A stretch of 64,000 nt of DNA from Staphylococcus phage Fi4S2, in the sequence record PV037056.1. One strand, given 5' to 3'. Every line of letters starts with the position of its first letter. Positions within the stretch are counted from its first letter, which is position 1. Of this stretch, positions 945-34,126 are shown in pieces. The position numbers were made by a program, and so were the translations under genes. Below the pieces are notes generated by a model, which worked only from the letters and a program-made list of their open reading frames with translations, did no database searches and had not been told where the DNA came from.

Positions 945-2827
945 TAGATGCCCTGCTTATTCGTAAAGAGTAAGTACCGAGTGTTAAATGCTATGAATCC
1001 GTAAAGCTAACTAAACTGAAACAGAAGAGGAAACTCTAGATGGAAAAGTTGTGAAAACAGAAAAAATTAGTTAGATGTACTAAGGTTAAATCCTAAGGTA
1101 TACACAATCGGTCTATAGCAGGGAAAGACCTAAGTTCAAATGAATAAGGGAGACCCTCAACGACTATTCCGTATAGGTGACGGAAGTAAAACCCTAAACG
1201 ACTGAGGGAAGAAAAATACTCCTACCTTAACTAAGGTAGAACAAATAGTCTCCACCCGTACCGAAAGGTAGGGCTATAGATGAACTATAGGATTACAAAG
1301 TGGTGTTTGTAATCAAAGAATGTTAAATAAATTATAACTTCCTATTGACATTACTTCCCTAACATGTTATAGTACATGTATAAGGAGGTGTAATAATGTC
1401 AGAAAGTACAACGTACAGAAAAATTAAAATAAGGTTAGTACCAACAAAAGAACAGGAAGAGTTAATGTGGAAGCATGTTCATGCTAGTAGATTTATTTAC
1501 AATTGGGGTCTTGAAAGGTGGTATAGTAATTTAGATAATGGAATAAAGAATACTACAAGTAATAAGTTATCTAAAGAACTAAAAACAGTGAAAGAAGAAA
1601 ACCCATGGTTAAAAGAGGTATCTAATAAAACTTTAGTAAAATCATTACAAGTTCTAGAGTTTAATATGAAGAGGTTTTTTAAAAAACAAACTAAAAGACC
1701 TAAATTTAAGAGCTCTAAAAGCAGTATACCTTCTTTTAAAACACGAACAGAAACTAAGTGGGGTAATAAACATTTACCTAACATTGAAGGAGATAGGATA
1801 CGGTTAGAAAAACTAAAATTAGTTAAATTATCTTCTAAGATAACTAAATCTATGAAAGAAAAGAACATAAACCCTGTATTTTATTCTAGTACAATCTATT
1901 ATGATGGTAAATATTGGTATATTTCATTAGCATATAAAGTCGAGAACCAAGACAAAAAAGAACTCACCAATGAAACCATAGGTATAGACTTAGGAATAAA
2001 ATCATTAGCTACTTGTTCAAATGGTAAATCTTATAAAAATATTAATAAAAGTTCTAAAGTTAAAAAACTAGAGAAAAGACTAACTAGATTACAAAGACAA
2101 CTATCACGTAAGTATGAAATGAATAAAGATAAAATACGAGTAGGACTACTTAATACAGATGGAACACCTAAGATAGATAAGCAAGGTAGACACATGTATA
2201 AGTATTCTAAAACTAAGAACATTATTAAGTTAGAAAAAGAGATAAAACTCTTACACAGAAAACTTAAAAATATTAGAAATAATCATGTTCATACTATGAC
2301 TAAAGAAATAGTAGAATTATTACCACAAGAAATAGTAATAGAAGATTTAAAAGTAAGTAATATGTTAAAGAATAAACATTTATCTAAACATATAAGTAAA
2401 GCTAATTGGTATGAAATACGTAGACAATTAACTTATAAATGTGAGGATAGAGGAATTCTTCTTACAATAGCAAATACTTATTACCCTTCAAGTCAAACCT
2501 GTAGTCATTGTGGTAATCGTTTAACCAAACAAGACAAACTTAGTCTTAAAGAGAGAACTTACAAATGTAAGAAATGTAATTCTAGTTTAGATAGGGACTT
2601 AAATGCTAGTATTAACTTAATGAACTATAGATACTCCAAATGGTGTCAAAATAATATAATTTCACAATAAAAGAAATATATTATATGTAGGATTCCGTAA
2701 ATCCGAATTTACGCCTTTGGAGTATCATACAAACCTTAGTAGAGTAATAAGAAGTAATTCTTTACAGAATGAAATACTCAAAAAGGGATACGTTGAAGAA
2801 GGAAGTTATAAATTAATTAACATACGG
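945..2827 (+). mobile_element. Group I intron with embedded tnpB (IStron-like) interrupting the nuclease gene at motif IV
   Basis: A ~450-nt ORF-free structured 5' region carries group I P7-like pairing strands GACTA (~1162-1166) and TAGTC (~1246-1250). The flanking exons join in-frame (intron length 1883 nt) and reconstitute the conserved GH-YH nuclease motif. The 3' end is ...ACGG followed by exon CATTATCAT. Confidence 0.7.
1396..2670 (+). CDS. tnpB: TnpB (IS200/IS605-family OrfB, RuvC-like RNA-guided nuclease)
   Basis: 424 aa. The N-terminus KIKIRLVPTKEQEELM is typical of OrfB. RuvC-I is IGIDLGIKSLA and RuvC-II is IVIEDLKV. A zinc finger CSHCG...CKKCN is followed by RuvC-III DRDLNASINL. 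Strong RBS AAGGAGGTG. Confidence 0.85.
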   Translation: MSESTTYRKIKIRLVPTKEQEELMWKHVHASRFIYNWGLERWYSNLDNGIKNTTSNKLSKELKTVKEENPWLKEVSNKTLVKSLQVLEFNMKRFFKKQTKRPKFKSSKSSIPSFKTRTETKWGNKHLPNIEGDRIRLEKLKLVKLSSKITKSMKEKNINPVFYSSTIYYDGKYWYISLAYKVENQDKKELTNETIGIDLGIKSLATCSNGKSYKNINKSSKVKKLEKRLTRLQRQLSRKYEMNKDKIRVGLLNTDGTPKIDKQGRHMYKYSKTKNIIKLEKEIKLLHRKLKNIRNNHVHTMTKEIVELLPQEIVIEDLKVSNMLKNKHLSKHISKANWYEIRRQLTYKCEDRGILLTIANTYYPSSQTCSHCGNRLTKQDKLSLKERTYKCKKCNSSLDRDLNASINLMNYRYSKWCQNNIISQ

Positions 2828-3271
2828 CATTATCATAGAAGACAGTATTTCCAAAACCCAAATCACTTTTATGGTGGTTCTTTAATGCAACAATCGTTCT
2901 CAGATGAGCAAGAAGCTAATGGTGTTCACTTAATAGATACTGATACTATTACAACGGAATTTATACCTCTAGATACACGTAGGTTTATTACAGTAAGAGG
3001 AGATGATGTTCCTGAAGACCTAGACCAACTTATAGAGTATGGTCACTTCATTAGATTTGTAGGTAGTACTAACCAAGCTAAAGCGATAGAGTTAGCATCT
3101 ACAGATGAGACTAATAACATACGAGTAGAGTTACAAAAAGATTATACGGTAGAAAAACGTATAGATAGTGAAGTCACTGACTCACCATTATCTATAGCAT
3201 CAAGCTATTCAGATAAGTACTATCCTGAAGCTAAAAAAGAAATACTAGAATGTCTACAGGAGGTGTTATAG
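2828..3271 (+). CDS. Mre11/SbcD-like nuclease, exon 2
   Basis: Starts HYHRRQYF...GGSLMQQSFSDEQ, the C-terminal part of the SbcD/Mre11 fold. It is in frame with exon 1 once the intron is removed. Confidence 0.7.
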   Translation, partial: HYHRRQYFQNPNHFYGGSLMQQSFSDEQEANGVHLIDTDTITTEFIPLDTRRFITVRGDDVPEDLDQLIEYGHFIRFVGSTNQAKAIELASTDETNNIRVELQKDYTVEKRIDSEVTDSPLSIASSYSDKYYPEAKKEILECLQEVL

Positions 3272-7636: not shown

Positions 7637-8077
7637 ATGGCTAAAAACAATCAACAAAACACAACAGTATCAACAGAGGACTTAAAAACTTGGTTAACTT
7701 ACTTAGCAACAAAATCAGTAGATGGTAAAGAAGAACCAACAGAGATGGACTTAAAACGTTTAGAACGTATTTCTAAAAAATCTATTACTTTAAATAATGC
7801 AACGACAGTAGCTAAACTAATGAGTGACTTAGAAACACAAGACTTACGTAGTCAGTTAGACTTACTACAACAATCATTCTCTGTATTAGCTTATGTAGTA
7901 CAACACAAATTAGAAATTACAGATGCAGAGTTCCAACAATATGTAAGTGATTATGAGAAAGACTTAGAGAAGTATAAAGAAGACATGGTAGAACAAGCTA
8001 AGAAAGAACAAGAAGCCAAAGCTAAGGATGACAAAGTAGTTTCTATGGATGCTGGTGTTGAAGATGGTAAACAGTAA
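7637..8077 (+). CDS. hypothetical acidic protein
   Basis: 146 aa; RBS AAAGGAG. Confidence 0.55.
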   Translation: MAKNNQQNTTVSTEDLKTWLTYLATKSVDGKEEPTEMDLKRLERISKKSITLNNATTVAKLMSDLETQDLRSQLDLLQQSFSVLAYVVQHKLEITDAEFQQYVSDYEKDLEKYKEDMVEQAKKEQEAKAKDDKVVSMDAGVEDGKQ

Positions 8078-8669
8078 GAATAAAGGTAATACCTTTGAAC
8101 GTAAGACAGCAGAGATACTAGGAAACTGGTGGAAAGCTAAGTTCAACAGAAGCCCCCAATCAGGGGGTGCAAGTTGGGCTTCTGAAAATAATGCAGTAGG
8201 AGACATAATCACAAGTGCAGAAGCTAGATTTCCTCTTGTTGTAGAATGTAAAGACAGAGAGAACTGGACTTTAGATAATGTACTACTTAATAATAAGGAA
8301 CCTCATACATGGTGGCAACAAGTTGTCGGTGATGCCGAAGCTGTAGATAAGTCTCCATGTTTAATATTTAAAAGAAAGTATTCTCAGATTTATGTAGCAC
8401 TACCTTATGTAGAAGATGTTTACATGAAGCTAAGAGAAAACACTGAACCTATTATGCGTACAGATTTTATTATTAATAACACAGTGAAAGATGAGCTTTA
8501 TTATGATGTTTTGATTACGACAATAGAATCGTTGACTTCTTTAAAACCATCTTATATTAGGTCTCACTATGACAATTTAGACTGGTCAGCATATCGTATA
8601 GAAAAAAGTGAAGTAAACAAAGCAACACAAGATACTTCATCTATAGACGATATGCTATCTAATATTTAA
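8064..8669 (+). CDS. Hjc-like Holliday-junction resolvase (PD-(D/E)xK)
   Basis: KGNTFERKTAEIL...VGDIIT...VVECKDRE matches the archaeal Hjc pattern (KGxxFER...D-x-E-x-K). Start is uncertain between 8049 and 8064. Confidence 0.6.
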   Translation: MVNSKNKGNTFERKTAEILGNWWKAKFNRSPQSGGASWASENNAVGDIITSAEARFPLVVECKDRENWTLDNVLLNNKEPHTWWQQVVGDAEAVDKSPCLIFKRKYSQIYVALPYVEDVYMKLRENTEPIMRTDFIINNTVKDELYYDVLITTIESLTSLKPSYIRSHYDNLDWSAYRIEKSEVNKATQDTSSIDDMLSNI

Positions 8670-8685
8670 AAGGATGGTAATATAG

Positions 8686-9087
8686 ATGACACATAAAGAA
8701 AGACCTTTACTTGTATACTTTTCAGCTTCAGGGCAAACTGAAAGATTAATAAATAAAATTAACCCTAGTAATAGCTTTACTACGCAAAGAATAAAAACAG
8801 GAACAGAAAAGATTGATAAGGAATATATACTTATCACACCTACTTATTTTAAAGGTCAGATACCTAAACAAGTTCAAAATCTTATTGCAAATAACCATCC
8901 TCCTAAAGAAGTTATTGGAACTGGTAACAGACAATGGGGACAAAACTTCTGTGGAGCAGGTAAAAAGATAGCTAGCATGTTTGGTATTAGACTCATTGAA
9001 AAAGTAGAACAATCAGGACACTTTAAGGAAGTAGATAATATACTAGAATACTTCACAAGACACTATCACATAGAGAAAGCAGGTTAA
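8686..9087 (+). CDS. nrdI: NrdI flavodoxin-like RNR accessory protein
   Basis: LVYFSASGQTERL...LITPTY...GTGNRQWGQNF is NrdI-like. It sits immediately upstream of nrdE. Confidence 0.8.
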   Translation: MTHKERPLLVYFSASGQTERLINKINPSNSFTTQRIKTGTEKIDKEYILITPTYFKGQIPKQVQNLIANNHPPKEVIGTGNRQWGQNFCGAGKKIASMFGIRLIEKVEQSGHFKEVDNILEYFTRHYHIEKAG

Positions 9088-9089
9088 TT

Positions 9090-10241
9090 ATGGTAAAAGC
9101 TATTGGAGATTGGATAGATTTAAACAATGAAATAATGCAAGTTGATGATAAAGGTAAAAACAAATTGTATAAAGATAAGGAAGCTTTACAATCTTATCAG
9201 AATTATGTTAAAGAGAATACATTGGAATTTGACAATGAAGTAGAGAGAGTTCGGTACCTAACTAAAGAAGGCTTATATGATTCTTTCTTCGATTCTGTAC
9301 CCGATACTATCATTAAAGAATTAACAGAGTTTGCTTACAGCTTCAATTTTGAGTTCCAAAGTTTTATGGCTTGTCAAAAGTTTTATGAGGGTTATGTTGT
9401 ATTAAAACATAATAAAGATAAGTCTTTTAATTTTGTAGAAAACTATGAACAACACAATGTGCGTGTAGCCTTATATATGTTCCAAGATGACTATGCAAAA
9501 GCTAGAGCCTTTGTAGAAGAGCTTATGACTCAAAGAGTACAACCAGCAACACCTACTTATACTAATGCAGGTAAAGGAAATAGAGGAGAATTAAGTTCTT
9601 GTTACTTATTTAATGTAGATGATACTTTAGATTCTATGAACTTTGTTGAAAACAACACTAAGAATGCTAGTAGAGTAGGTGGAGGAGTTGCTATAGACTT
9701 CACTCGTATTAGACCTGCTGGAGCTACAGTAATGGGTAATCCTGGAGCTAGTAAAGGCGTAGTTCCTTATGCCAAAGAGATTGAACAAGGATTAAGTCGT
9801 ATAGACCAAGGTGGTAACAGACCAGGAGCTGGAGCAGGGTATTTAAACATCTTCCATATGGACATCTTTAACTTTTTAGATGCCAAGAAGATAAATGCTT
9901 CAGAATCTTTACGTTTATCTACATTGTCAATTGGTGTTATTATACCTGATAAATTTATGGAACTTGTTAAATCAGGTGAAGACTTCTACACATTTGACAC
10001 TTACGACATCTTCTTAGAGTATGGTAAGTACATGGATGAGGTTGACTTTAATACAGAATATGATAAACTAGTAGCTAATGAGAATATTAGAAAGGAAAAG
10101 CACTCAGCAGAAGACTTAGTAACTAACATTGCTAAAACACAGCTAGAGTCAGGCTATCCTTATGTATTTTTCATTGACACAGCTAATGAGAATCACCCTC
10201 TAAAACAGTTAGGTAGAGTTAAAATGAGTAACTTGTGTAAA
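9090..10241 (+). pseudogene. nrdE: nrdE (class Ib RNR alpha) 5' portion only, interrupted at the catalytic SNLC motif
   Basis: The N-terminal and central RNR-alpha sequence, including SSCYLF, is present. The ORF ends MSNLCKQMHL with a stop inside the inserted element. No downstream nrdE exon is present in this window. Confidence 0.7.
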
Positions 10242-10367
10242 CAAATGCACCTTTAAGGAGCAATCCTTATCGAAAAATCCATCTAAAACGGGGAAGCCTA
10301 AGTCGTATAGATAAGGTAATCCGTTGCTAAATATATAAATTGTAGTCACTCTAAGGAGAGTGATAGT

Positions 10368-10949
10368 ATGAAAAACAAACCTGTAGGGTCAGTATACGTT
10401 ACTACATGCCATATTAATGGTAAAAAATATATAGGTAAGTTTCTTTATAACAGAATAAATGATTGGAAAAAATATCTAGGTTCAGGAAGGTACCTGAAAG
10501 AAGACATAAAAAAATATGGTAGAGAAAACTTCAGTAAAAAGATAATAAAAGATTATTACAGCAAGAAAGAACTAGAACAGGCTGAAGAAGAGTTAATTCT
10601 ACAAACTGGTGCAGTATATGACACTAACTACTACAATGTAAAGTTGTCCTCAATAGGAGGGGATGTTTTTACAACTAATCCACGCAAAGAAGAATTACGT
10701 GCTATGAGAAAACAGCAAATGAGTGGAAAAGGTAATCACCAGTACGGTAAGACTAAAACTAAAGCTATGGTAGATTCTGTAAAGAAAGCTAACTCTAGAG
10801 CTATAGAGGTGGATGGGGTATTTTACCCTAGTACATCAGAGGCTTCAAGAACACTAGGAGTTGGACATACTACAATAGGCTACAGGTTAGACTCTGAAAA
10901 CTATCCTACATATAAAAGATTGACACCTAGAAAGTTTGAAAAGAAATGA
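10368..10949 (+). CDS. GIY-YIG homing endonuclease
   Basis: N-terminal GSVYVTTCHINGKKYIGK is a GIY-YIG motif. There are repeated NUMOD-like basic segments and a C-terminal HTH. RBS AAGGAGAG. The ORF is inserted in a hairpin loop (flanks ATATAAATTGTAG / CTACAATTTATAT). Confidence 0.85.
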   Translation: MKNKPVGSVYVTTCHINGKKYIGKFLYNRINDWKKYLGSGRYLKEDIKKYGRENFSKKIIKDYYSKKELEQAEEELILQTGAVYDTNYYNVKLSSIGGDVFTTNPRKEELRAMRKQQMSGKGNHQYGKTKTKAMVDSVKKANSRAIEVDGVFYPSTSEASRTLGVGHTTIGYRLDSENYPTYKRLTPRKFEKK

Positions 10950-11010
10950 CTACAATTTATATTAAATGCCCAACGACTATCTGTAACCTATCTACAATGT
11001 AGAGGGATAA

Positions 11011-11160
11011 GGTTAGAGCCAAGTGGTCAAGGTATTGAGTAATAATCATATAAAACCTTGTTAAATCGAAACGGTGGAACTCCCATGGGAGTTCCACCGT
11101 TTCGATTTAACAAGGTTTTATATGATTATTACTCAATACCTTGACCACTTGGCTCTAACC
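11011..11160. repeat. Perfect 150-bp palindrome (75-bp arms) centred on CCCATGGG
   Basis: Read directly: 11011-11085 is the exact reverse complement of 11086-11160. The first mismatch occurs at 11007/11164. Confidence 0.9.
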
Positions 11161-11345
11161 TTCTCCCTCTTACTTAGTAAGATAGGTTACGGATAGTCGT
11201 TAGGCATTTACAATACTTAGTATTGATTTAGCACGGGATTACCTCTATCCTTTTAGGACTTAGGTTCTCTTATCAGCTGTTTAAAGCTATGCCCGTTTTA
11301 GATGGATTTTTCGATAAGGATTGCTCCTTAAAGCTACATTTTAGT

Positions 11346-11744
11346 TTATAGAAACGCTATTTGTTCTGTTACGATTTCCCCTACTCGGAATTCTTCATTA
11401 TAATTTTGTGCACTACAGCCGTGATAAGATATAATAACATCTTTAGTTAAATTATCCACGACTACAAGGTCGATTACGTCTTTTTTAAGAATTTCTTCAC
11501 CTAGTGAAGCAAAGCCTAACTTAGCAAAGTTCTCTTTTTTCATACGTAAACGTTCTACTGTTATTGTACCCTCATAACGTAAGTATACGTGTTCTTGAGG
11601 CATAATAGAACCAATTTCATAAACACCTGTAGTACCATATTCACGTTGTCCTGACGCTGATTGTGCACGACCAACGATTTTTCCACCTACCATAATGTAG
11701 ACGGTATTACCACTGTGTACAGACTGTTTCTTTTCTGATGCCAT
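11346..11744 (-). CDS. tail tube protein
   Basis: 132-aa ORF immediately downstream of the sheath gene on the same strand; size and position are typical of a myovirus tube protein. Confidence 0.65.
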   Translation of the reverse strand: MASEKKQSVHSGNTVYIMVGGKIVGRAQSASGQREYGTTGVYEIGSIMPQEHVYLRYEGTITVERLRMKKENFAKLGFASLGEEILKKDVIDLVVVDNLTKDVIISYHGCSAQNYNEEFRVGEIVTEQIAFL

Positions 11745-23330: not shown

Positions 23331-24629
23331 CTACTGTCCTAATTGAGGGTCTGTGGGTTCTAATGTTTGTTCTTCTTGAGCATTTTCTGTCTCATTATCA
23401 GGTGTCTCTTCTCCAGTTTCTATAGTCTCTTCAGGATTCTCAGAGTTACCTACATCTTCTTCCATATTAGTTTCTTCTTCTTCAGGAGGAGAAGGATTAG
23501 TTACTTCTTCTTCTGTATTATCTCGCCCTTCTTCAGGAGGTGTAGGGTTGACTGTCTCTTCTCCATTACTGTTTTCATTGTTGTTTTCTGCTGGAGGTAC
23601 TTCAGGTTCAGGAGCCTCTTCTCCATTACCACCATCTGTATCGACATTATCAGAAGGCTCTTCAGGATTAGTAACTTCCCCGTTACCACCATCTGTATTA
23701 CCTCCTCCAATACCTCCAGGCGTATTAGGGTCAGGATTAGGATTAATATTAACGTCAGGGTCTTCAGGTACAGTAGGGTCTGTAGGCTCAGGTTCTACAG
23801 GTTGTGTAGGCTCTACAGGTGTAATGTTTCCATCTCCACCATTATTACTATCCCCGTTGTTAGTACCTGTATTACCTCCTCCTATTCCCCCAGGAGTGTT
23901 AGGGTCAGGGTTAGGATTTACATTAACGTCAGGGTCTTCAGGGTTATCAGTAGGTGGAGAAGGCTGTGTTACTCCATTGTCAACACCCTCTGCATTGTTG
24001 TCATCTCCTCCTCCTATTCCTCCAGGAGTGTTAGGGTCAGGGTTAGGATTAACATTAACGTCAGGGTCTATTATACTTCCATATTCTTGACCAATAACGG
24101 GCGGAGAGGAGCTATTTATATTTGGTGAAGTATTGTAAGGGTTGTTAACTAATGAGTCATCCTGAGATGGTACAGGTGCTTGTGCGCTTCTAGCTCTATC
24201 TAAAGACTCTTTATCACCTGCTTTGTAACCCTCACTTTCATTAGCTCTTACTTCTTTATTAGAGCTATCCTTCATTGCAGTATCGTCACTAATGACTTCT
24301 TTAATAGATTTATCTTTGTTAGCTTCTTTATCTATTGTTTCTTTCATTTTTTCTGCGTCTTCTATTTTTTCTTGTTTACTCTTCTTGTTGTAATCTTTAT
24401 AGTCAGATTCCTTTTTTATTTTTATTATTTGCTTTTGAGCTTCATCTAGTTTACTCTTACTATCTTCTGAACGCTCTTTGTAAAGCTCCACCTTATCTTC
24501 TAGATTCTCTGCATCAGAAGATAACTTTCTATTATTTACATACAAGAAAATAAGACCTAAAATGACTACGATACCTATAGCAATTACTAATACATCACTT
24601 ATAAGCTTATTTTGTTTTCCACTCTTCAC
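23331..24629 (-). CDS. membrane-anchored protein with coiled-coil, Pro/Gly tandem repeats and acidic tail
   Basis: 432 aa. It has an N-terminal TM segment (LISDVLVIAIGIVVILGLIFLYV), three copies of DPDVNVNPNPDPNTPGGIGGG and a D/E-rich C-terminus. Confidence 0.6.
   Translation of the reverse strand: MKSGKQNKLISDVLVIAIGIVVILGLIFLYVNNRKLSSDAENLEDKVELYKERSEDSKSKLDEAQKQIIKIKKESDYKDYNKKSKQEKIEDAEKMKETIDKEANKDKSIKEVISDDTAMKDSSNKEVRANESEGYKAGDKESLDRARSAQAPVPSQDDSLVNNPYNTSPNINSSSPPVIGQEYGSIIDPDVNVNPNPDPNTPGGIGGGDDNNAEGVDNGVTQPSPPTDNPEDPDVNVNPNPDPNTPGGIGGGNTGTNNGDSNNGGDGNITPVEPTQPVEPEPTDPTVPEDPDVNINPNPDPNTPGGIGGGNTDGGNGEVTNPEEPSDNVDTDGGNGEEAPEPEVPPAENNNENSNGEETVNPTPPEEGRDNTEEEVTNPSPPEEEETNMEEDVGNSENPEETIETGEETPDNETENAQEEQTLEPTDPQLGQ
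23720..24070 (-). repeat. three tandem ~120-nt coding repeats within the 432-aa gene
   Basis: Near-identical DNA blocks encode the PEDPDVNVNPNPDPNTPGGIGGG repeats. Confidence 0.7.
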
Positions 24630-24687: not shown

Positions 24688-24725
24688 AAAAAAAAGAGAG
24701 CTAAGTTAATAGCTCTCTAGTTTTA
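24688..24725. terminator. bidirectional intrinsic terminator
   Basis: A8-AGAGAGCT-AAGTTAAT-AGCTCTCT-T4. A near-identical hairpin recurs at 28156-28190. Confidence 0.6.
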
Positions 24726-24727
24726 GT

Positions 24728-25420
24728 TTATTTCCACTTAATTTTTCCCCAATATTTCTCACTCTTGATTCTTTCTTTCTTATCTGTGATTCTACATACT
24801 GCTAAGTAGAAATAACCTGCTGAAGGGTTTGTTGGGTATTTAAACTTAATCCACCAGTAACCGTCTTTTTTAGTTACAGATACAAAGTCTACCCATTGGT
24901 TAGCGTATAGCCAAGAGCCTTTGCCTACAACAGAACCTTTTAACCCAGCACTACGTCTAACTTTGATAGTAGCATTAGCTGTAAAGCGTCCTTTCCAAGC
25001 CCATGTAATTTTCTTAGAAGGTTTAGGTACAGGTAGTTTCTTGAATTTAGGTCTAACAAAAATCATGTTAGGGTCATAGTTGTGTACACGTTTTGTTACT
25101 GTTTCCCAACCTGTACCTCCCATTTCTCCACCTGATGTCCAGCCTCCTCCAAGCCAATTCTGCTCTAGGAGAGTTAAGCTGTTTAACGTTGCAGATAGTA
25201 CCCATGCAACATGTCCAGCTCCATTACCATATGTACCAGGGAATATACACATATCTCCTGGTTTAGCTAAAAAGCTAGGTGTATTTTTATAGATAGTAGC
25301 TGTGTTTTTGAATATAGCTTTGTTATCTCCTGCGATATTTTTTGCATATGCTCCTGAAAGCATCTTACCAGGGAATAACTTTAGCCATCCTGCGTTTGCA
25401 TAGTCATAACATTGAACTTT
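24728..25420 (-). CDS. CHAP-SH3b endolysin, exon 2
   Basis: The reading frame is open upstream of the annotated Met (..[12 protein letters not shown]..). This is the CHAP catalytic Cys region, followed by the GHVAWV His motif and an SH3b (SH3_5) domain. Confidence 0.75.
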
Positions 25421-26307
25421 ATATTACGTATCTACCTTTCCTTTATACCATTTCTAGTATAAGATGTCTAGTAGGTACTCTTATAGTTTCCCATAAGAAT
25501 AGACTATCTCATTAATTGACAAATTCTTCAAATTTTAACTTTGTTCCATTTTTTAAGTTGTAATTAAGAATGAAATCTTTCCGTCCGTTAACTGCCTCTT
25601 GTAGTGTTTTAAAAGTACCTATATGCTTAGGTCTCCTATTTATACATACATTAACTTCATATTGGTCTTTAGACTCTCTATAGAAAACTCCTGTATAACC
25701 TGTTTTATTGTTATACTTTTTCCTATTATTGGAATTCTCTTTAGGTGTCACCCAATGACAGTTATCAGGTCTGTAGTTTCTATTATTATCTATTCTATCT
25801 AGCTGATGGTTCTTACTTGGTGCGTCTCCCATGTCCTCATAAAAGTTAATAAATGATTCATCCCATCTACTACAAACTTTTATTCCTCTACCACCGTATC
25901 TGTGATATGAGTGATAGTTAGAGTTGTTACACCTAGTCTTCATGTTCTTCCATGCTCTATACTCTTTAGGGTATTTTTTAGAACCACCATGAATAGTTTT
26001 ACTTTCTGATATTTTCATTCTTGTTTCTTTGTTTTGAAGTTTTTTAACCATCTATGTCTCCTCCTTTAGAGGTATCATAGCATAATTAAAGTTTGTTGTC
26101 AACTACCCTCCGCTGTCCGTCAATTGACGATGCTTAGTCGTTGGAGTTTCTACCTCTATTACCAAGGTAGCTTACCTGCTGATTGCCCATTGTACATACT
26201 TATTATTTTTAAACATTCAAGCTTGCAATTACTTGCTACTTTGTAGTTAATAAGTCTTTAGGGGTTCCCAGTCAATTCAAAGGGTTTTACTTGGGCTATA
26301 ATGTTAA
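25421..26307 (-). mobile_element. group I intron in the CHAP lysin gene
   Basis: Splits the CHAP domain between DADGWFG and VQC. It carries P7-like strands (plus TAGTC at ~26138, plus GACTA at ~25503) and an internal HNH ORF. Confidence 0.7.
25512..26051 (-). CDS. intron-encoded HNH endonuclease (HNH_3 with AP2-like DNA-binding domain)
   Basis: CNNSNYHSYHRYGGRGI...NCHWVTPKEN HNH motifs, and a C-terminal YTGVFY..KTLQEAV AP2-like domain. Confidence 0.85.
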   Translation of the reverse strand: MVKKLQNKETRMKISESKTIHGGSKKYPKEYRAWKNMKTRCNNSNYHSYHRYGGRGIKVCSRWDESFINFYEDMGDAPSKNHQLDRIDNNRNYRPDNCHWVTPKENSNNRKKYNNKTGYTGVFYRESKDQYEVNVCINRRPKHIGTFKTLQEAVNGRKDFILNYNLKNGTKLKFEEFVN

Positions 26308-26397
26308 CCCAAACCAACCATCTGCATCATAACGTTTACCAATAGACTGCTTCATCCATGCTATAAACTCTTTTTGTGTCAACTTTGCTGTTGCCAT
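26308..26397 (-). CDS. CHAP-SH3b endolysin, exon 1
   Basis: The minus-strand ORF MATAKLTQKEFIAWMKQSIGKRYDADGWFG is the conserved CHAP N-terminus and ends at the intron. Confidence 0.65.
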
Positions 26398-26462
26398 TCT
26401 ATTACATCCTTTCTAATATAAATAAGGGGCTAGAATCATCTAGCCTCTTTTGTCTTATATGC

Positions 26463-27386
26463 TTACGACCATTTAATAGTTCCCCAGTAACGTTCATTCT
26501 TAATCTTTTCTTTCTTGTCAGTTATTTTAGTAACTGCACAATAGAAATAGTTTTTGCTTGAACCTGGTGCTTGATACTTAAATCTAATCCACCAATAACC
26601 ATTAGCTTTAATAACTTGGTCAAATTTTACCCAGTCATTTTTATCGTATAGCCAAGAGCCTTTGTCTACAATAGCTCCACTAAGACTAGGGGACTTACGA
26701 ACCTTAATAGTTGTATTTGGATAGAAAGTACCTTTCCAATTCCATTTAGTTCTAGGAGCTGGTTTAGAAGGTTTAGCCTTCTCTGCTGTAGTGTCTTTAG
26801 AAGGAGCTACATCTTTCTTGTAGTATTTAGCTACAATTTTGTCTAAGTTAGAAGTTGCTCTTCCGTATCCTGAAGCTTGTAATACGTTACCAGGGTCTTG
26901 TTTACCAGCTTGGATGTCCTGATGCCCTGGCATATTAGTTTTATAGTTAATACCCCAATACTCAGCTAAGTAAGCTAAAACTTTTGCTCCATTTTCTAAT
27001 GATTTCTTAGAGCGTGCTTTATCTGAGAAGTAAGATATTTCTACACCAATAGCACCATCATTAGCATCTACACCATACCAAGCATTATCTTGTTGTGCAT
27101 CATATAATACATGCCAGGCTTTTTCTGTAGTAGGTATACAAACAATAGCCTCTTTGTCATCAACAAAGATGTGAGCTGATGCTACAAAGTCCCAAGAGAT
27201 GTTATAACTATTTCTGTAATAGTCTACATTATTTTGAGCTGTAGTATTAATGTTTCCTGTATCGTGAGCCACAATAAATTTTGGCTTACCTGTTGTTAAC
27301 TTTTGACCTGAACGTCTAGTACCGATTGGTAATAAGTCTGTTTTGACTTTTACACCTTTCCACGTCTCTGCCATTAACTTCACCAT
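26463..27386 (-). CDS. N-acetylmuramoyl-L-alanine amidase (Amidase_2/PGRP) + SH3b endolysin
   Basis: An Amidase_2 domain (FIVAHDTGN...HQD) plus a C-terminal SH3_5 domain (WKGTFYPNTTIKVRKSPS...YWWIRFKY) like that of the CHAP protein. Confidence 0.85.
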   Translation of the reverse strand: MVKLMAETWKGVKVKTDLLPIGTRRSGQKLTTGKPKFIVAHDTGNINTTAQNNVDYYRNSYNISWDFVASAHIFVDDKEAIVCIPTTEKAWHVLYDAQQDNAWYGVDANDGAIGVEISYFSDKARSKKSLENGAKVLAYLAEYWGINYKTNMPGHQDIQAGKQDPGNVLQASGYGRATSNLDKIVAKYYKKDVAPSKDTTAEKAKPSKPAPRTKWNWKGTFYPNTTIKVRKSPSLSGAIVDKGSWLYDKNDWVKFDQVIKANGYWWIRFKYQAPGSSKNYFYCAVTKITDKKEKIKNERYWGTIKWS

Positions 27387-27427
27387 TCTTTCTTTATATT
27401 TTCCTTGCTTAAATAATATAGCAAGTA

Positions 27428-27634
27428 CTAATCTTCTTGAATAGTTAAAAGAGACTTAATAATCTGACTAGCGTATTTACCATCTAGTGTTTTTAAATCT
27501 ACATCAGGGAGTAAATCCATTTTATCCCACAGTTCTTCTTTTGTTTGAACTTTATTATTGATAAATGCTTTACCAATTAAACTTTGAATATAATTAAATT
27601 GTTTTGAACTCATTGGTTGAGAAGTATTATTCAT
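27428..27634 (-). CDS. hypothetical protein
   Basis: 68 aa with no TM segment; sits upstream of the lysins. Confidence 0.45.
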   Translation of the reverse strand: MNNTSQPMSSKQFNYIQSLIGKAFINNKVQTKEELWDKMDLLPDVDLKTLDGKYASQIIKSLLTIQED

Positions 27635-27865
27635 AATATACCGCCTTTAATTTTGTTTATATGTATTTGAAGAGGAGGTAAAAGGAGCCACCCTAATACC
27701 TCTTTGATTTAACAGCTTAGAGTATAGTCAAAATAAGTAGTAGATTACCTTGACTATAAATACATTATAACACAGAGTAGTTATATTTTTTTATCTTTTA
27801 CATATAGTTATTTAATCTTGAATGTGGGAGTTCTTACCTTTATTTATGTTGTATAAAACTTATTA

Positions 27866-27989
27866 TGACACATTTAGGAATTTAACGATGTTTATTAGTA
27901 TATATACTTTAATAACCTTTATTAGTACTTTAGTAATTATAATAATAATAGTTATATATAAAGATTGATAAATGTTCTAAATGTGTCAC
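27866..27989. repeat. MITE-like 124-bp element, copy 1, with 12-bp terminal inverted repeats
   Basis: Begins TGACACATTTAGG and ends CTAAATGTGTCAC; AT-rich interior. Confidence 0.7.
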
Positions 27990-28012
27990 TTTATGTTGTA
28001 TACTATCTATTA

Positions 28013-28135
28013 TGACGTATTTAGGAATTTATTAACCTTTATTAGTAATTATAGTTATAATACTAGTAATTATAATTAAAGATATATAAAGTATATAGTT
28101 ATATATAAAGATTAATAAAATCTTAAATGTGTCAC
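28013..28135. repeat. MITE-like element, copy 2 (tandem)
   Basis: Begins TGACGTATTTAGG and ends TTAAATGTGTCAC; the interior is homologous to copy 1. Confidence 0.7.
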
Positions 28136-28155
28136 TTTCTGTATTACACAATATA

Positions 28156-28190
28156 ATAAAAAAAGAGAACTAAACTAATAGCTCTCTTCA
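28156..28190 (-). terminator. intrinsic terminator
   Basis: A8-GAGAACTAAACTAATAGCTCTCTT. Same design as 24688-24725. Confidence 0.5.
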
Positions 28191-28201
28191 AGATATATTT
28201 A

Positions 28202-28420
28202 TTAAACTTTACCTTCTACAGATATAATTAAGTTAGCATTAATAAAGATTTGTTTAGAATCTACACTATCTTCAGTATTAGCTAAGAATAAACTATGTCC
28301 ACCTTTACCAATAGACTGAGAAACATGAGTTACAGGTATTACCCCAGCCTCTCCTTCAGGGAAAGCAAAGAATTTACTACCGTCAATCATTGTTATTTCT
28401 AGTTTTTTAAAGTTATACAT
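28202..28420 (-). CDS. hypothetical protein
   Basis: 72-aa ORF. Confidence 0.45.
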   Translation of the reverse strand: MYNFKKLEITMIDGSKFFAFPEGEAGVIPVTHVSQSIGKGGHSLFLANTEDSVDSKQIFINANLIISVEGKV

Positions 28421-28437
28421 TTACAACTTCCTCTCTT

Positions 28438-28776
28438 TTAATTTAAAAATTTACCAAGTATATAAGGTATAGCAACACCAATAGCACCTAGTATAGCCTT
28501 CTCAGCAAAAGCTTTTCTGTTATCACTACGGTCTTGGTCACTATCTTGTAAAGCTTTTAGTTGTTGAGATAGCTCATTGACAGTATCAAACAGTTGTTGG
28601 TTTTTTATCTTATCTATTTCATAATTTCTATCTAGGCTGTTTAGCTTAGCTTCTAAGTCTTCTAGAGACTGAATTAATGCTTTGAAATCTTCAGTTTTAA
28701 CATATTTACCTGCTATTAAATCTTGCTCTATGCTTCTTAATCTATCCAATACATCTGAAAGATTGCTAGTGTCCAA
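28438..28776 (-). CDS. coiled-coil protein with C-terminal TM anchor
   Basis: 112 aa; heptad-rich, ending AILGAIGVAIPYILGKFLN. Confidence 0.5.
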   Translation of the reverse strand: MDTSNLSDVLDRLRSIEQDLIAGKYVKTEDFKALIQSLEDLEAKLNSLDRNYEIDKIKNQQLFDTVNELSQQLKALQDSDQDRSDNRKAFAEKAILGAIGVAIPYILGKFLN

Positions 28777-28810
28777 GACCTTACCCTCCCATCAAAACTT
28801 TTACTGCACT

Positions 28811-29086
28811 TTATGTTGATTTTTCTTTAAAGTATGTTATAATATAGTTAATCAGTGATAGAGTAGTAGCTATTACTGTAATAAAGGTTATTGGCAGTGA
28901 CCTAGTAGCAAGACCTAGCAAGTTTAATATGAGCAAGCATATCAAAACTATAACTGAAATAGCACTATAACATTTATCAATACCATTGCGGTAGTATAGA
29001 TTATGAGAAAGCCTTTTTGTACTATGTTCAAGAAGGAAGATGTACCACAAGCTAGACGCAAAATAAAGTGCAAAAAATAACCACAT
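28811..29086 (-). CDS. small membrane protein (about 3 TM)
   Basis: 91 aa, hydrophobic; first gene of the minus-strand unit at the divergence point. Confidence 0.5.
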   Translation of the reverse strand: MWLFFALYFASSLWYIFLLEHSTKRLSHNLYYRNGIDKCYSAISVIVLICLLILNLLGLATRSLPITFITVIATTLSLINYIITYFKEKST

Positions 29087-29201
29087 AAGTCTTCACCTCT
29101 CAAAAAAATAATATAACACAATGGTTTGGCAGGCAGTTGTGTTAAATTAATAGTATATAGGCTGTAATTTTAGCCTAAGAAAAGTAGAGGTGTGATAAGC
29201 T

Positions 29202-29627
29202 TTGTTTTCAAACTTAAAAGACGTTATTCTTAAAGCTTTTTTAGTGGTATTTGTGTCCATGCTAGCACTAGCAGTAGTAAATCATTTAGCATTTATGTTA
29301 GGTCTTAGACCGACATCTATAATAATTTATATACTATTTGGTGTGGTGCTGACTAATACCGTACTCAATTGGTATGATAGAATAGCTAATAATTATGAAG
29401 ACCCTTTACCTAAATACGTAATAGATAAATTAGAGCGTAAAGATAAAGAACTACAAATTATAAAAGAAGCTATTAACAACATAGAAGGAATTAATTTAAC
29501 ACGTTCAGAGATTGAAGTCTTAGCAGAAAAACACCTCCAAGACCAAAAGTCAGGTGGTGATAAGTCAGATGACTCTGCAAGAACTGAAGAAGAAAAGGTT
29601 ATCAGTATCAAAAAAACAAATAAGTAA
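29202..29627 (+). CDS. membrane protein with coiled-coil C-terminus
   Basis: 141 aa, two N-terminal TM segments; first gene of the plus-strand unit. Confidence 0.5.
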   Translation: MFSNLKDVILKAFLVVFVSMLALAVVNHLAFMLGLRPTSIIIYILFGVVLTNTVLNWYDRIANNYEDPLPKYVIDKLERKDKELQIIKEAINNIEGINLTRSEIEVLAEKHLQDQKSGGDKSDDSARTEEEKVISIKKTNK

Positions 29628-29845
29628 TAAAAACATCGTACATTTTAGAAGGTATGATAAAAGACCTACAGACTCTACAAGAGTGTGTTGTGTTTGCGGA
29701 AGACCTCTAACTAAGGTAAATCTAGCTACTGGTCAAGTTATAACAGACGTTGAACATAAACAGATAACTGTAGGCTATGGACTGAAAGTTCATGTATGTT
29801 ACTACATAAAAAGCTGTAAGACTTATCTACGGTGGAAAGGAGACC

Positions 29846-30271
29846 TTGAGGAAAGTGAGAGCTGACCAAATTAGAGACCGTATGCAACAAAAGAAAGCAT
29901 CTTTAGAGGACACAAAAAAAGAAACTATTAGTAACTTTAATAATACTGCTCAAACCTTAACAAAAGCTTTTTTCCAAAAAGTTCAAAATGGTGAGGTAGA
30001 GATAACAGATGTAAATGAATTCCAAAGAATATTTGCTATGTTCCTTCAGATTAATGAACTAGAGAACGGTACAGATGGCACTGGTATGCTACCTCAATTG
30101 TCCGTTTCTCAAAATAGAGCGTTAGACCAAAACATAGAATTTGAGTCTGATGATGAAGGTGAGCAGTATGTAGTGGAATCATCAATTGAAGACATGACAG
30201 AAGAAGATTTAATGAAGATGATAGCACAAAAAGAAGAAGCAATGAATGAAGACAACTATAGACAATTTTAG
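29846..30271 (+). CDS. hypothetical protein upstream of terL (possible small terminase)
   Basis: 141 aa, acidic C-terminus; position only. Confidence 0.4.
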   Translation: MRKVRADQIRDRMQQKKASLEDTKKETISNFNNTAQTLTKAFFQKVQNGEVEITDVNEFQRIFAMFLQINELENGTDGTGMLPQLSVSQNRALDQNIEFESDDEGEQYVVESSIEDMTEEDLMKMIAQKEEAMNEDNYRQF

Positions 30272-30290
30272 ATAAAGAAGGTATATACAT

Positions 30291-30638
30291 ATGGATGGTA
30301 AAGAACTTTTAAAGATTACCAAAGAGACATTCAAGACGGATAATCCTACAAAGGAGCAACTTGATTATGTGTTAACAACGTCTAGGCCTTCGAGTTATAT
30401 TCTAAAACATAGTAAAGTAAAAGGGCATCCGTTGACTTTCTCTATACCAAATAGAGACTCTGCGAATGCCCATTCTCATAGGCCATGGCAAACTCAAATC
30501 GTAAACGACCAGCATCCAAATAAAGCTATAATAAAGGCAAGACAATTGGGGCTCAGTGAGATGGGAGTATGGGAAATGATGTGGTTTGCAGACATGCATA
30601 GCTATGCATCTGCTAAGTGTTTGTATACTTTCCCTAAA
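30291..30638 (+). CDS. terL: large terminase subunit, exon 1
   Basis: Contains the ...KARQLGLSE... segment typical of the terminase ATPase N-terminus. The ORF stops shortly after, and the sequence resumes in the downstream exon. Confidence 0.65.
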
Positions 30639-31922
30639 TAATTGGGGCTATAGTAAGTAATTACTATAGAAAACTCTACTAAAAGGGCAAAGCTGAATAA
30701 TGAATAAGCTGATAAGAGAGCCTAAGTCCTAAAAGGATAGTGGTAATCCCTTCCTAAATTCTTGACATCATAGATTCACTATGCTATGATTAAATCAAGA
30801 TAAATGGCTAACGACTAAATTTACTGGTATCTATTCAAAAGGGAATAAGTAGAACAGTATAAGAAAACTTGTCAATTTAGCTAAAATAGGAGAATTGAAA
30901 ATGACTAAAAGAAAAACCCATGATGAATTTGTAAAAGATGTTTATAATCTAACAGGTGATGAATACACTGTAGTAGGAACCTATACACTAACAAAAAACA
31001 AATTAGAGATGAAACATAATGTTTGTGGTAACACATATGAAGTAAAAGCAAATAACTTTATATGTGGTAAACGATGTCCTGTATGTATGAAAAAGAAAAA
31101 ATACAATACCTCTGAAGATATAAAACAGAGGATAGATGATAAATATCAGGGTCGTTTAGTTATGGTAGGTGACTATGTAGACTTACAGACAAAAACATCT
31201 TTTAAATGTACTATCCACAATACTTATATAGATAGAGCTCCTGGAGTAGTTTTGTCTACTAATACTAACGTATGTAAAGAATGTATAGCAGAAGCTTCTA
31301 GTAAACGACAATTGAGTAATTCCAAGTACATTCAGGATAAGTTAGATAAGTTACACAATGGAGCTATCATAATTATAGGTGATTATAAAGGTAATCATAC
31401 AAAAACTCTTTTTAAGTGCTTAGACTGTACCAAAGAGTTTGATGCAGAGCCTAATTCTGTTACTAGAATAAGTGGATGTCCAAGATGCAAATTATCAAAA
31501 GGTGAAAAAGAAATATCTTCAATTCTTAACTCTTTAAATGTGTCATATATACCTCAAAAGACTTTTGATGATTGCATATACAAAAGAAAGTTACCTTTTG
31601 ATTTTTATATAGAGAGTGCAAATTTACTAATTGAATATGATGGTTTACAACATAGTAAGCCTATAGAGTACTTCGGTGGAGAAGAAGCCTATAAAAAGCA
31701 AGTTATTAAGGATTCTATAAAAACCAAGTATGCTACTGATAATAATATCAAGTTAGTGAGATTTAATTACAATACTCCTAAGACAGAAATGAAGAAAACT
31801 ATTGTAAAACTTATTGACAAGAAGTAATGTAGAGAATCCTTAACCTAAACTAAGGATTATGAGATAGTCTAGTCCCACTCTTAAATGAGTGTTAAAGTAT
31901 CACGAAAGTGAGGGTATAATCG
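30639..31922 (+). mobile_element. group I intron in terL
   Basis: P7 strands AACGACTAAAT (~30820) and GATAGTCTAG (~31875) flank an endonuclease ORF. The segment 30709-30750 is ~95% identical to the inverted intron copy at 11235-11277. Confidence 0.65.
30895..31827 (+). CDS. intron-encoded endonuclease: multi-CxxC zinc-finger N-terminus + PD-(D/E)xK (DUF559/Vsr-like) C-terminus
   Basis: Repeated C..C motifs (CGNTYEV, CPVCM, CKEC, CPRC), then PFDFYIE...LIEYDGLQH...D..K..KLVRF, the DUF559-type nuclease signature. Confidence 0.7.
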   Translation: MKMTKRKTHDEFVKDVYNLTGDEYTVVGTYTLTKNKLEMKHNVCGNTYEVKANNFICGKRCPVCMKKKKYNTSEDIKQRIDDKYQGRLVMVGDYVDLQTKTSFKCTIHNTYIDRAPGVVLSTNTNVCKECIAEASSKRQLSNSKYIQDKLDKLHNGAIIIIGDYKGNHTKTLFKCLDCTKEFDAEPNSVTRISGCPRCKLSKGEKEISSILNSLNVSYIPQKTFDDCIYKRKLPFDFYIESANLLIEYDGLQHSKPIEYFGGEEAYKKQVIKDSIKTKYATDNNIKLVRFNYNTPKTEMKKTIVKLIDKK

Positions 31923-33431
31923 ACAAATAGACAAATGAAGGAGTTTGTTCAAACTAGGTTAGACCCTACCCTTGACCAACCTTACTTTAAAAGTATCGTA
32001 GATAAAGATTATAACTCAGTACAATTGAAAAGGTTTAGAAATTCAAGCTTGTTTTTCCGTACTAGTAGTAAACCAGGAAGTGTAGAGGGTGTCGACATTG
32101 ACTTTTTATCCCTCGATGAGTACGATAGAATTAATAAACTAGCAGAAGCTTCAGCAGAGGAATCAATGTCAAGTTCTAAATTTGGAGTAAAAAGACGGTG
32201 GTCAACACCTTCTGCTCCTAATACAGGAATACATCGTTTGTTTGAAGCATCAGACCAACACCAATACTTACACAAGTGCGACAAATGTAACCACTGGAAT
32301 CAAATGAGCTATGAGGATTACGATTCTAGTTCCGTTGAAGCAGGAGGAAATATCCTCTGTGTTAACCCTGATGGAGTTGATAGATTAAGTCAAACAGTAG
32401 TAGATGGAACCTTCCAATATGTCTGTCAGAAATGTGGTAAACCACTAGACCGATGGTATAATGGTGAGTGGGTTGCTAAGTATCCTGAGCGCACTAAAGA
32501 TGGTGGAGGCATTAGAGGATACTCAATTTCTCAGATGAATGCTGTGTGGATAACAGCCGATGACTTAAAACGTAAAGAATTAGCTACACCAAGTAAGCAA
32601 GCCTTCTACAACTACATGCTAGGATTCCCTTATGAAGATGCTAGCTTAACAGTATTAGAGGAAGACGTGTTTGATAACTATGCAGAAAACTTGTTAACAC
32701 AAAAGCATGACCGTAAAGGTTATAAATACATATCATGTTCTGTGGATTGGGGTAGAACACATTATTGTACTGTACATGGCATGACAGAATCAGGAGAAGT
32801 TCATTTAATAAGACTATTCTCCATCCCTGAAGTTAGAGACCCTAAACAGATAGGTATGGATGTTCAACAAATTATTATAGAATTTTCTAAGTACAAACCT
32901 GACATTGTTATGGCTGATAAGGGAGATAGTGGTGACAAAGTACTAAAACTAATCAACCACTTTGGTGAAGGTAGAGTTTTTTCTTGTGAATATAAATCAG
33001 CACCTAAATCTACAGGAGAATTTGTACCTCAAGTAAATGCCAATCAACATAACATGAAAGTAGATAAGTTAACTCAAAATAAGATTTATATAGATGCATT
33101 AAAATCAGGTTATATAAAAACTTATAAAATCATAGATGAGGACTTAAAGAAATATTTAGTACATTGGAAAAATGTAGTTATAAGAGATGAAGAAGATGAG
33201 ACTAATGGTGGTTTTTACCAAACAATATCTCGTAAAGGAGATGACCATTATAGCCAAGCTTCAGTAATTGGCTATATAGGATTAAAACGTCTACAACTTC
33301 TTAACAGTGGCGCAGGAAATGAATTTGGTTCTACATTCATTAGCACACTGAATCCTGAAGCTCCTAAAGGTGGTATGGATAATGAAAAAGATGTATCATC
33401 ATTATTACAAGACATTTATAAGAAGGATTAG
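31923..33431 (+). CDS. terL: large terminase subunit, exon 2 (ATPase Walker B + nuclease domain)
   Basis: IDFLSLDEY Walker B-like motif and a C-terminal RNaseH-like nuclease region. In frame from 31923 after a TAA at 31917. Confidence 0.8.
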   Translation, partial: TNRQMKEFVQTRLDPTLDQPYFKSIVDKDYNSVQLKRFRNSSLFFRTSSKPGSVEGVDIDFLSLDEYDRINKLAEASAEESMSSSKFGVKRRWSTPSAPNTGIHRLFEASDQHQYLHKCDKCNHWNQMSYEDYDSSSVEAGGNILCVNPDGVDRLSQTVVDGTFQYVCQKCGKPLDRWYNGEWVAKYPERTKDGGGIRGYSISQMNAVWITADDLKRKELATPSKQAFYNYMLGFPYEDASLTVLEEDVFDNYAENLLTQKHDRKGYKYISCSVDWGRTHYCTVHGMTESGEVHLIRLFSIPEVRDPKQIGMDVQQIIIEFSKYKPDIVMADKGDSGDKVLKLINHFGEGRVFSCEYKSAPKSTGEFVPQVNANQHNMKVDKLTQNKIYIDALKSGYIKTYKIIDEDLKKYLVHWKNVVIRDEEDETNGGFYQTISRKGDDHYSQASVIGYIGLKRLQLLNSGAGNEFGSTFISTLNPEAPKGGMDNEKDVSSLLQDIYKKD

Positions 33432-33434
33432 CCT

Positions 33435-33620
33435 ATGCTAGTTCTTCTTAATATTACTACAGAGGAAATTGTTGCTATTGCACTTTATGCTACAATCCTA
33501 TGCTTGTATGTTATACTATCTATTAGAAAAGAAATGAAGAGACTCTATTACCAAGAAGTAATTTTAGAGGCTAAAATTAGGATAGATAAAATACTTAATA
33601 AGCATGGTGATAATAAATGA
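33435..33620 (+). CDS. small membrane protein
   Basis: 61 aa, one TM segment. Confidence 0.4.
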   Translation: MLVLLNITTEEIVAIALYATILCLYVILSIRKEMKRLYYQEVILEAKIRIDKILNKHGDNK

Positions 33621-34123
33621 CAAAAATAAACAAGAATGATACAATAATGGATTTAATTAGACATGATTTACCTTTATCAAAAACTTTGGAATCTCCTACA
33701 AAAGAAGAAACGACTGAAGGTTCTCATAAAGTAGCTGAAATCTTAGCTCCTATTATCAGAGAGATGTATTATACATATGAATTTAGAAAGTTCACACCTC
33801 AAGAAGGGGATAAAGAAAGTGCACACTCTTTAACTTTTAAAATTACAGGACGTAATGAAGATAGATTTATTGCACTTGCTAAGCTATTTAAAATATTTAG
33901 TGACTATAGGTTAAGCCCTATTGAAGCATCTAAAGTGTTTAGAGAGGAATATGTAGACCAAGGTAAGGTTATGGAATTAGGAGAAGGGGTTGTAGTAACT
34001 AAACTATACTTTACTAATCCTATGGAATCTCCTGACCTTACACTTATCATTGACTACACAGACCAAGAAACATATGATGAGCTAATGCGTATTAGAAAAG
34101 AAGTAGAAGAAAGTTTAAAATAG
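33617..34123 (+). CDS. hypothetical protein
   Basis: 168-aa ORF overlapping the previous stop. Confidence 0.5.
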   Translation: MTKINKNDTIMDLIRHDLPLSKTLESPTKEETTEGSHKVAEILAPIIREMYYTYEFRKFTPQEGDKESAHSLTFKITGRNEDRFIALAKLFKIFSDYRLSPIEASKVFREEYVDQGKVMELGEGVVVTKLYFTNPMESPDLTLIIDYTDQETYDELMRIRKEVEESLK

Positions 34124-34126
34124 GGG

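Follow-up and report, generated by a model that had tools for sequence, protein, structure and literature searches.

The palindromic region between nrdE and the tail-tube gene of a Staphylococcus phage genome record is probably a head-to-head contig mis-join within two related group I introns

The window analyzed here is a 64,000-nt stretch of Staphylococcus phage Fi4S2 (PV037056.1), a phage of the Twortvirinae (Herelleviridae) whose nearest GenBank record is vB_SsapH-Golestan-100 (LC647030.1, ~97% identity; hereafter Golestan-100). The ribonucleotide reductase gene nrdE and the tail-tube gene converge in this window on a 1.1-kb region, which an earlier note on the same DNA had described as a single foldback element. 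We consider it likely that the region is an assembly artifact, in which two contig ends were joined head to head within related introns. Neither the palindrome at its center nor the broken nrdE and clipped tail-tube gene is likely to be real. The two arms do not make up one element. Each is an intron of its own within a different host gene, and the two are truncated at one and the same internal base. The left one, in nrdE, is called intron N, and the right one, in the tail-tube gene, intron T. Both introns, their insertion sites, the common truncation base, the arms of 77 nt, and the native continuation in a close relative are observed directly. Of the four explanations in the note, we favor the last, a chimera of homologous intron copies formed in assembly, on the basis of the 77-nt arms, the blunt join, the intact intron of a relative, and the one-strand gene order of relatives. 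The coordinates of the features are listed in Table 1.

The geometry of the palindrome should be described first. The central palindrome is perfect and lacks a spacer, as had been noted, though its length is 154 bp (11009–11162, 2 × 77 nt) and not 150 bp; the first mismatch is found between positions 11008 and 11163. The arms remain 99% complementary when slightly extended (11001–11085 versus 11086–11170). The outer inverted repeats are exact over 42 nt (10251–10292 versus 11292–11333), in agreement with the previous description, and 96% complementary across 50 nt. The right arm (11086–11347, 262 nt) has no ORF, and beyond the central 154 bp it differs from the left arm, so that its description as an ORF-less and diverged inverted copy holds. 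Among the exact repeats of the window, the palindrome stands well above the next-longest ones (42 and 36 nt), and it is far beyond chance expectation. The half-lengths of the largest other spacer-less palindromes are 18 in the window, 15 in Golestan-100, and 12 in phage Twillingate (MH321491). This outlier size, with no comparable palindrome in the two related genomes, counts in favor of a mis-join. The second-largest spacer-less palindrome of the window is a perfect one of 36 bp at 51192–51227. As single-stranded DNA, the segment 10960–11210 gives a folding energy of −124.5 kcal/mol (z = −36).

Neither the palindrome center nor the last 23 nt of its left half gave any match in an exact-pattern scan of IMG/VR. 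For the right arm together with its tail-tube junction, coverage reached 80% in none of the GenBank phages, and the junction was intact in none of them. Exact-protein look-ups returned no record for the truncated NrdE, the truncated tail-tube protein, the endonuclease, or the sheath protein. Rfam searches at the E-value threshold matched the palindrome only to plant miRNA precursor models, which were judged spurious.

Homology to introns in relatives identifies the left arm as the 5′ portion of a genuine group I intron of nrdE. The nrdE ORF (9090–10256) encodes 388 aa and ends with …VKMSNLC followed by KQMHL and a stop codon; the previous observation that nrdE stops inside the region after the SNLC codons is correct. 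Intronless relatives, namely Golestan-100 and six Logan contigs with an identical NrdI, show 96–98% identity to the window up to ~10246 and then read SNLC-TEISQLQ…. Intron N is homologous to the annotated nrdE group I intron of Twillingate and also to those of Golestan-105-M, pSco-10, and phiIPLA-C1C. The endonuclease encoded in intron N has the Pfam domains SegE_GIY-YIG and I-TevI_DNA-bd, and is 96% identical to its closest comparator (P0121) and 80% identical to the GIY-YIG homing endonuclease of Twillingate. A putative P1 helix is formed at the splice site: the exon ends with …GUGU, the last exon U takes part in a U·G pair, and the guide GCAC lies directly 5′ of the conserved CUUUAAGG. At the gathering threshold, Rfam detects no group I intron anywhere in the window. 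The Intron_gpI model gives a sub-threshold score of 20.4 bits at 10287–10367 against a gathering score of 50. Since the intact Twillingate intron likewise scores below the gathering score (31.8 and 26.3 bits), the model appears to be insensitive to this subgroup.

The continuation of this intron in a close relative should be noted. Logan contig L017 (SRR28502148) is 98% identical to window 7841–11092, encodes the same 388-aa NrdE exon 1 product, and carries an endonuclease 96% identical to that of the window. It holds a complete nrdE intron of 941 nt, which includes the GIY-YIG gene as the earlier note had proposed for the left arm and runs on normally beyond the position equivalent to 11085. 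Past …GGTGGAACTCCCA, the contig continues with AGTGGAGTAATTATATAGTCTACTCGTATATGGAAACATATAG…ATATACAGG/ACAGAAATC, where the slash marks the splice site. When the 941 nt are removed in silico, the reading frame is restored and the NrdE protein is the same as that of Golestan-100 at 509 of 510 residues. By comparison, intron N in the window lacks the last 94 nt of the native intron, comprising P8-3′, J8/7, P7-3′ (AUAGUC), P9, and the terminal G; P7-3′, P9, and the terminal G are present in the introns of both L017 and Twillingate. The window copy ends in the P8 loop without a complete core (P3–P9 with both P7 strands and the terminal G), and as written it therefore cannot splice. The same point of departure is observed in all five intron-bearing relatives (Twillingate, Golestan-105-M, pSco-10, L017, and L018). 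Their similarity to the window is lost within 10 nt of 11085, and they run on into P7-3′, P9, and nrdE exon 2. In four of them, nrdF comes next, and in the remaining one, L017, the contig ends within exon 2.

The right arm is, as far as its sequence tells, the 5′ part of a second, separate genuine group I intron. Three independent intronless contigs (L016, L020, and L021) align with the window no further than 11347, which places the insertion boundary inside a Tyr codon after …IAFL. The tail-tube stop codon TAA (11346–11348) is made of the last exon base and the first two intron bases. The protein in the window thereby lacks its last 11 codons, YLYASDKASSK. Full-length tail-tube proteins of close relatives, represented by P0001 (99% identity), P0004 (identical exon), and spliced Golestan-100, are 143 aa long and end with …IAFLYLYASDKASSK. 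Intron T starts with AAACTAAAATGTAGCTTTAAGG… and intron N with AAACAAATGCACCTTTAAGG…. The predicted P1 pairings have the same register, with guide GUAG and exon CUAU in intron T versus guide GCAC and exon GUGU in intron N, which amounts to two compensatory changes, and both carry a U·G wobble at the splice site. Because the guide is matched to its own exon, we take intron T to be a real intron that has adapted to the tail-tube site rather than a duplicate of intron N. The intron is a mosaic: the first 50 nt are 96% like intron N, the middle part is 92% like the intron in the terminase large-subunit gene (30707–30759), and the last 77 nt are the same as those of intron N. It stops at the same internal base as intron N. 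No complete core was found for it, and tail-tube exon 2 (ACCTATATGCTAGTG…) is not in the window. The truncation of both introns, each without P7-3′, P9, terminal G, and exon 2, counts in favor of a mis-join. A tail-tube intron at this site was found in none of the GenBank phages and in none of the closest metagenomic relatives.

These boundaries bear on the proposals that a group I intron gave rise to a palindromic mobile element here, or that nrdE is trans-spliced with the 3′ half and exon 2 transcribed elsewhere. The outer 42-nt inverted repeats do resemble terminal inverted repeats, and in RNA transcribed through the palindrome, P7-5′ could base-pair with the reverse complement of its counterpart in the other arm, as the note had pointed out. 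However, the apparent terminal repeats are the conserved 5′ regions of two introns, each with an exon-matched guide. A mobile element is expected as one recurring unit at a single target site, whereas the two outer boundaries here, as set by intronless relatives, are separate intron insertion sites in two genes. The absence of the center from IMG/VR and of an intact right arm and tube junction from GenBank phages also argues against such an element. For trans-splicing, neither a 3′ splice site nor exon 2 is present in the window. Indeed, the nrdE C-terminal half, nrdF, polA, tail-tube exon 2, and the intron 3′ core are all absent from the 64 kb, which confirms that neither nrdE exon 2 nor nrdF follows. 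Neither proposal gains support from these data, and taken together they are very improbable.

The favored mis-join can be explained by the ends of contigs in a de Bruijn graph with k = 77. In the true genome, nrdE and the tail-tube gene would lie on the same strand ~44 kb apart, each with its intron complete, and the two introns would be identical over at least 77 nt in the P7–P8 region. In the graph, the paths of the two introns would merge at X, the first shared 77-mer after their last difference. Contig A (nrdE exon 1, the 5′ part of intron N, and X) and contig B (tail-tube exon 1, the 5′ part of intron T, and X) would both end on X. Concatenating contig A with the reverse complement of contig B head to head would be written as …T-X-rcX-C…, where rcX is the reverse complement of X, i.e., a blunt palindrome of 154 bp bounded by the last difference between the introns. 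Such a join would imitate a convergence of nrdE and the tail-tube gene together with a loss of the 3′ half of each intron and the second exon of each gene. In the genome itself, the sequence beyond 11085 would be AGTGGAGTAATTATATAGTC….

The observed geometry agrees with this model. X starts directly after the last mismatch between the introns, so the exact repeat has the length of an assembler k and is bounded by the last difference between the copies (77 nt, mismatch at offset 77). We favor the k = 77 contig-end geometry because the arms match exactly over 77 nt, with the last mismatch at position 78. For 150-bp reads, the default largest k of SPAdes is 77, and SPAdes contigs retain terminal k-mers. 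The join itself is blunt: L017 reads …GGAACTCC-CAAGT-GGAGTAATTATATAGTC…, and the window reads …GGAACTCCCA/TGGGAGTTCC…, where the slash marks the join. The native P8 hairpin ACTCC-CAAGT-GGAGT of L017 thus corresponds to ACTCC-CATG-GGAGT in the window, and the CATG center is accounted for by the head-to-head joining of two …CTCCCA ends. We infer the assembler, its k value, and the route by which the two contigs were joined. The region resembles de Bruijn contig-end artifacts in that the arm equals k (77 nt), the last difference between the copies lies just outside it, the join is blunt, and the interior and downstream paths are missing. It is unlike them in that the head-to-head concatenation is no standard graph walk. 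Graph-driven misassembly by SPAdes and MEGAHIT has been documented in the form of unsafe unitigs and palindrome splitting, though not of this exact type (PMC9528984).

Several points weigh against a mis-join. The assembler and its k value are presumed. A graph-aware assembler should not join A to rcB by itself, and the model must therefore also presume scaffolding or finishing by hand. Elsewhere the window seems soundly assembled, with an independent contig collinear over the last 10 kb and natural-looking junctions elsewhere, and the mis-join would therefore be an isolated error. A random concatenation of many contigs was considered and rejected for the same features; one mis-join suffices. 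In addition, the center of the palindrome falls in the loop of the native P8 hairpin, a position that the k-mer model leaves to coincidence, with a chance estimated at roughly 5–10%.

The P8-loop position is what an in vitro amplification or library chimera would explain. Foldbacks formed at the P8 hairpin, for example in multiple displacement amplification or enzymatic fragmentation, would open a path from X to rcX with an exit via the other intron. Inverted chimeras at short inverted repeats are a known class of artifact. Contrarily, chimeras primed by a hairpin keep the loop, which is lost here, and rare chimeric reads seldom win the consensus. A hairpin-primed foldback was down-weighted for this reason, the native CAAGT being replaced by the symmetric CATG. 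In any hairpin model, the arm of 77 nt would be a coincidence (estimated at 1–3%) and the lost loop would still be unexplained. We regard a chimera of this kind as quite unlikely.

The gene order in relatives is also informative. A NrdI protein identical to that of the window is encoded on at least 24 Logan contigs, in every one of which nrdE and nrdF come next on the same strand. In six of the Logan contigs (L010–L015) and in Golestan-100, an intronless nrdE is followed by nrdF, a thioredoxin-like gene, and polA on the same strand. These six contigs, which extend from the helicase gene to nrdE and then polA, thus carry nrdI-nrdE-nrdF-polA on one strand. In L020, a contig from the European Nucleotide Archive that encodes a tube protein with 99% identity, one strand carries the portal, sheath, tube, and tail genes. 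Twillingate and Golestan-100 have both the tail-tube and the nrdE modules on one strand. Since the two genes share a strand there, introns N and T would be direct repeats in that gene order, and homologous recombination between them cannot yield a head-to-head junction. The argument is based on Twillingate and the independent contigs L010–L015 and L020. Golestan-100 was partly dropped as a reference for gene order, because an independent Logan contig (L019), which is collinear with window 53562–63999, sides with the window and not with Golestan-100 over 53.5–64 kb. Every difference in order between the window and Golestan-100 falls at A/T homopolymer runs of Golestan-100 (A9T9 and T11A8 joins) or at the ends of its record, and at these differences the window has natural-looking terminator-promoter arrangements. 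The LC647030.1 record (loci L001–L003) has apparent mis-joins at homopolymers (~80190–80210 and 135033–135050), and starts with A9 and ends with T9.

A real rearrangement has to be weighed against this gene order. It would have inverted the ~44-kb segment from the tube intron to the nrdE intron, with rejoining in the P8 loops, thereby destroying both introns, inactivating nrdE, and removing 11 residues from the tail tube. A fork U-turn or a break could plausibly occur in the loop of a native P8 hairpin, where the center lies, and the agreement of the rest of the window with an independent contig suggests that the assembly is not generally unreliable. Ribonucleotide reductase is often dispensable for phages. 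However, the native loop is gone, and the blunt join shows perfect symmetry. A simple self-primed foldback could not produce arms that derive from two loci, and recombination of direct repeats gives no such junction, as described above. That the arm measures exactly 77 nt to the last mismatch would have to be accidental, with an estimated chance of 1–3%, and relatives with 97–99% identity keep the canonical order. Bacteria and phages do not stably maintain long perfect palindromes, which are cleaved by SbcCD. An inversion by breakage or template switching in the P8 loops of two introns in direct orientation, with the phage remaining viable, is therefore considered unlikely, though somewhat less so than a chimera formed in vitro. 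In an exotic version of it, both split introns may still function in trans, the break in L8 permitting a bipartite reassembly.

The mis-join and the inversion make different predictions for the whole record. In the case of a mis-join, the other contig ends would hold both intron 3′ halves, a second palindrome of 2 × 77 nt would be found there if the record was circularized, and the interior of the repeat would be partly missing. If the inversion were real, no intron sequence would be missing from the record. Apart from the missing repeat interior and the second palindrome, a view of the whole record cannot separate the two.

Compared with foldback and inverted-duplication junctions, such as those from a replication U-turn or hairpin-capped breaks, the region is similar in being a large quasi-palindrome centered on a native hairpin. 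Such junctions keep an asymmetric loop or spacer and have arms from one locus, whereas the present region has lost the loop and draws its arms from two loci ~44 kb apart. The mark left by head-to-head contig ends, as proposed here, would be diagnostic: a perfect palindrome without a spacer, with arms as long as a common assembler k and with the last difference between the two repeat copies directly outside them. Mobile introns present in several copies would make Herelleviridae genomes a predictable place for such mis-joins. Taken at face value, the record would describe a phage that has lost ribonucleotide reductase, truncated its tail tube, gained a new palindromic intron-derived element, and undergone a large inversion, which is unlikely to be true.

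Intron N is of a known kind and close to annotated examples. Phages are well known to carry group I introns in genes for ribonucleotide reductase, polymerase, and terminase (PMC3984707, which cites Landthaler et al. 2002 for the nrdE introns of Twort). The nrdE introns with GIY-YIG genes in Staphylococcus Twortvirinae such as Twillingate and phiIPLA-C1C have the same SNLC site, a homologous endonuclease, and the same 5′ part. In the window, by contrast, the inverted 5′ part of another intron stands in place of the last 94 nt and exon 2. Intron T, in turn, represents a previously unrecorded intron site in the tail-tube gene, the guide having covaried with the new exon. Tail-tube introns in Herelleviridae, which are unannotated in GenBank, interrupt the 3′ region of the gene at several sites in relatives. 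Compared with them, intron T is at another site, and its 5′ part alone is visible. The tail-tube 3′ region is an unannotated intron hot spot in the family, to which intron T adds a new site.

Tail-tube genes of other phages provide some further observations. The Golestan-100 gene has an intron of 243 nt after …SYHG (L001, 23555–23797). Tail-tube proteins in the set, which includes P0006, P0015, and P0022, are truncated after NNYE (Twort-type) or after NEIV (P0006). The GenBank annotations of interrupted Herelleviridae tail-tube genes simply truncate the coding sequence.

Table 1. Positions of the genes, introns, and palindrome halves around the junction in the window
Feature	Position	Strand	Basis
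nrdI (flavodoxin-like NrdI)	8686..9087	+	ORF; 5′ of nrdE
nrdE exon 1, ending at the Cys codon of SNLC	9090..10238	+	ORF, intronless relatives
Intron N, 5′ 847 nt of the putative nrdE group I intron, P1 to P8 loop	10239..11085	+	Homology to nrdE introns of relatives
GIY-YIG homing endonuclease gene within intron N	10368..10949	+	ORF of 193 aa
X, 77 nt identical in introns N and T; left palindrome half; putative end of contig A	11009..11085	+	
Reverse complement of X; right palindrome half; putative end of contig B	11086..11162	-	
Intron T, 5′ 262 nt of the putative ORF-less group I intron in the tail-tube gene	11086..11347	-	Intronless boundary, P1 guide
Tail-tube exon 1	11348..11744	-	ORF 11346-11744, ending …TEQIAFL-stop

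Two other genes in the window are interrupted. An insertion of 1.9 kb (944–2823) splits an SbcD-like exonuclease gene into 363–947 and 2717–3271. It carries a TnpB/IS605-OrfB-like ORF (1396–2670), 44% identical to the "IS605 OrfB transposase" of Twillingate, and 3′ of this ORF a RAGATH-18 RNA (2714–2804), whose score of 65.8 bits exceeds the gathering score. Golestan-100 and the Logan relatives L010 and L013 lack the insertion, and no group I signal was detected in it. It may be spliced out in the manner of an IStron, or it may disrupt the SbcD-like gene. The terminase large-subunit gene is interrupted at 30635–31922 by an intron-like insertion of 1288 nt with a 310-aa ORF (30895–31827). The 5′ part of the insertion is 92% identical to the tail-tube intron. 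Golestan-100 is without this insertion, and its own intron in the same gene is situated at a different site.

The arrangement of modules and noncoding elements should also be mentioned. The lysis-terminase module (~24700–36400) is inverted relative to the module from portal to tail tube when compared with Twillingate, and Golestan-100 has the same arrangement. The far boundary of the module in the window has a natural-looking terminator and promoter, and the inversion of this module is probably a real feature of the lineage. A DUF3800-I RNA motif (36274–36412; 45.5 bits versus a gathering score of 44.2), which ends in a terminator hairpin, marks the boundary between the terminase-side and the early-gene blocks. 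Three tandem copies of a 110-nt unit with a spacing of 132–174 nt are located at 23659–24074, between the portal-side and lysis-side modules. Promoter-like repeats of 60–130 nt, both direct and inverted, are shared between 27843–28155 and 56046–56209, 28 kb apart.

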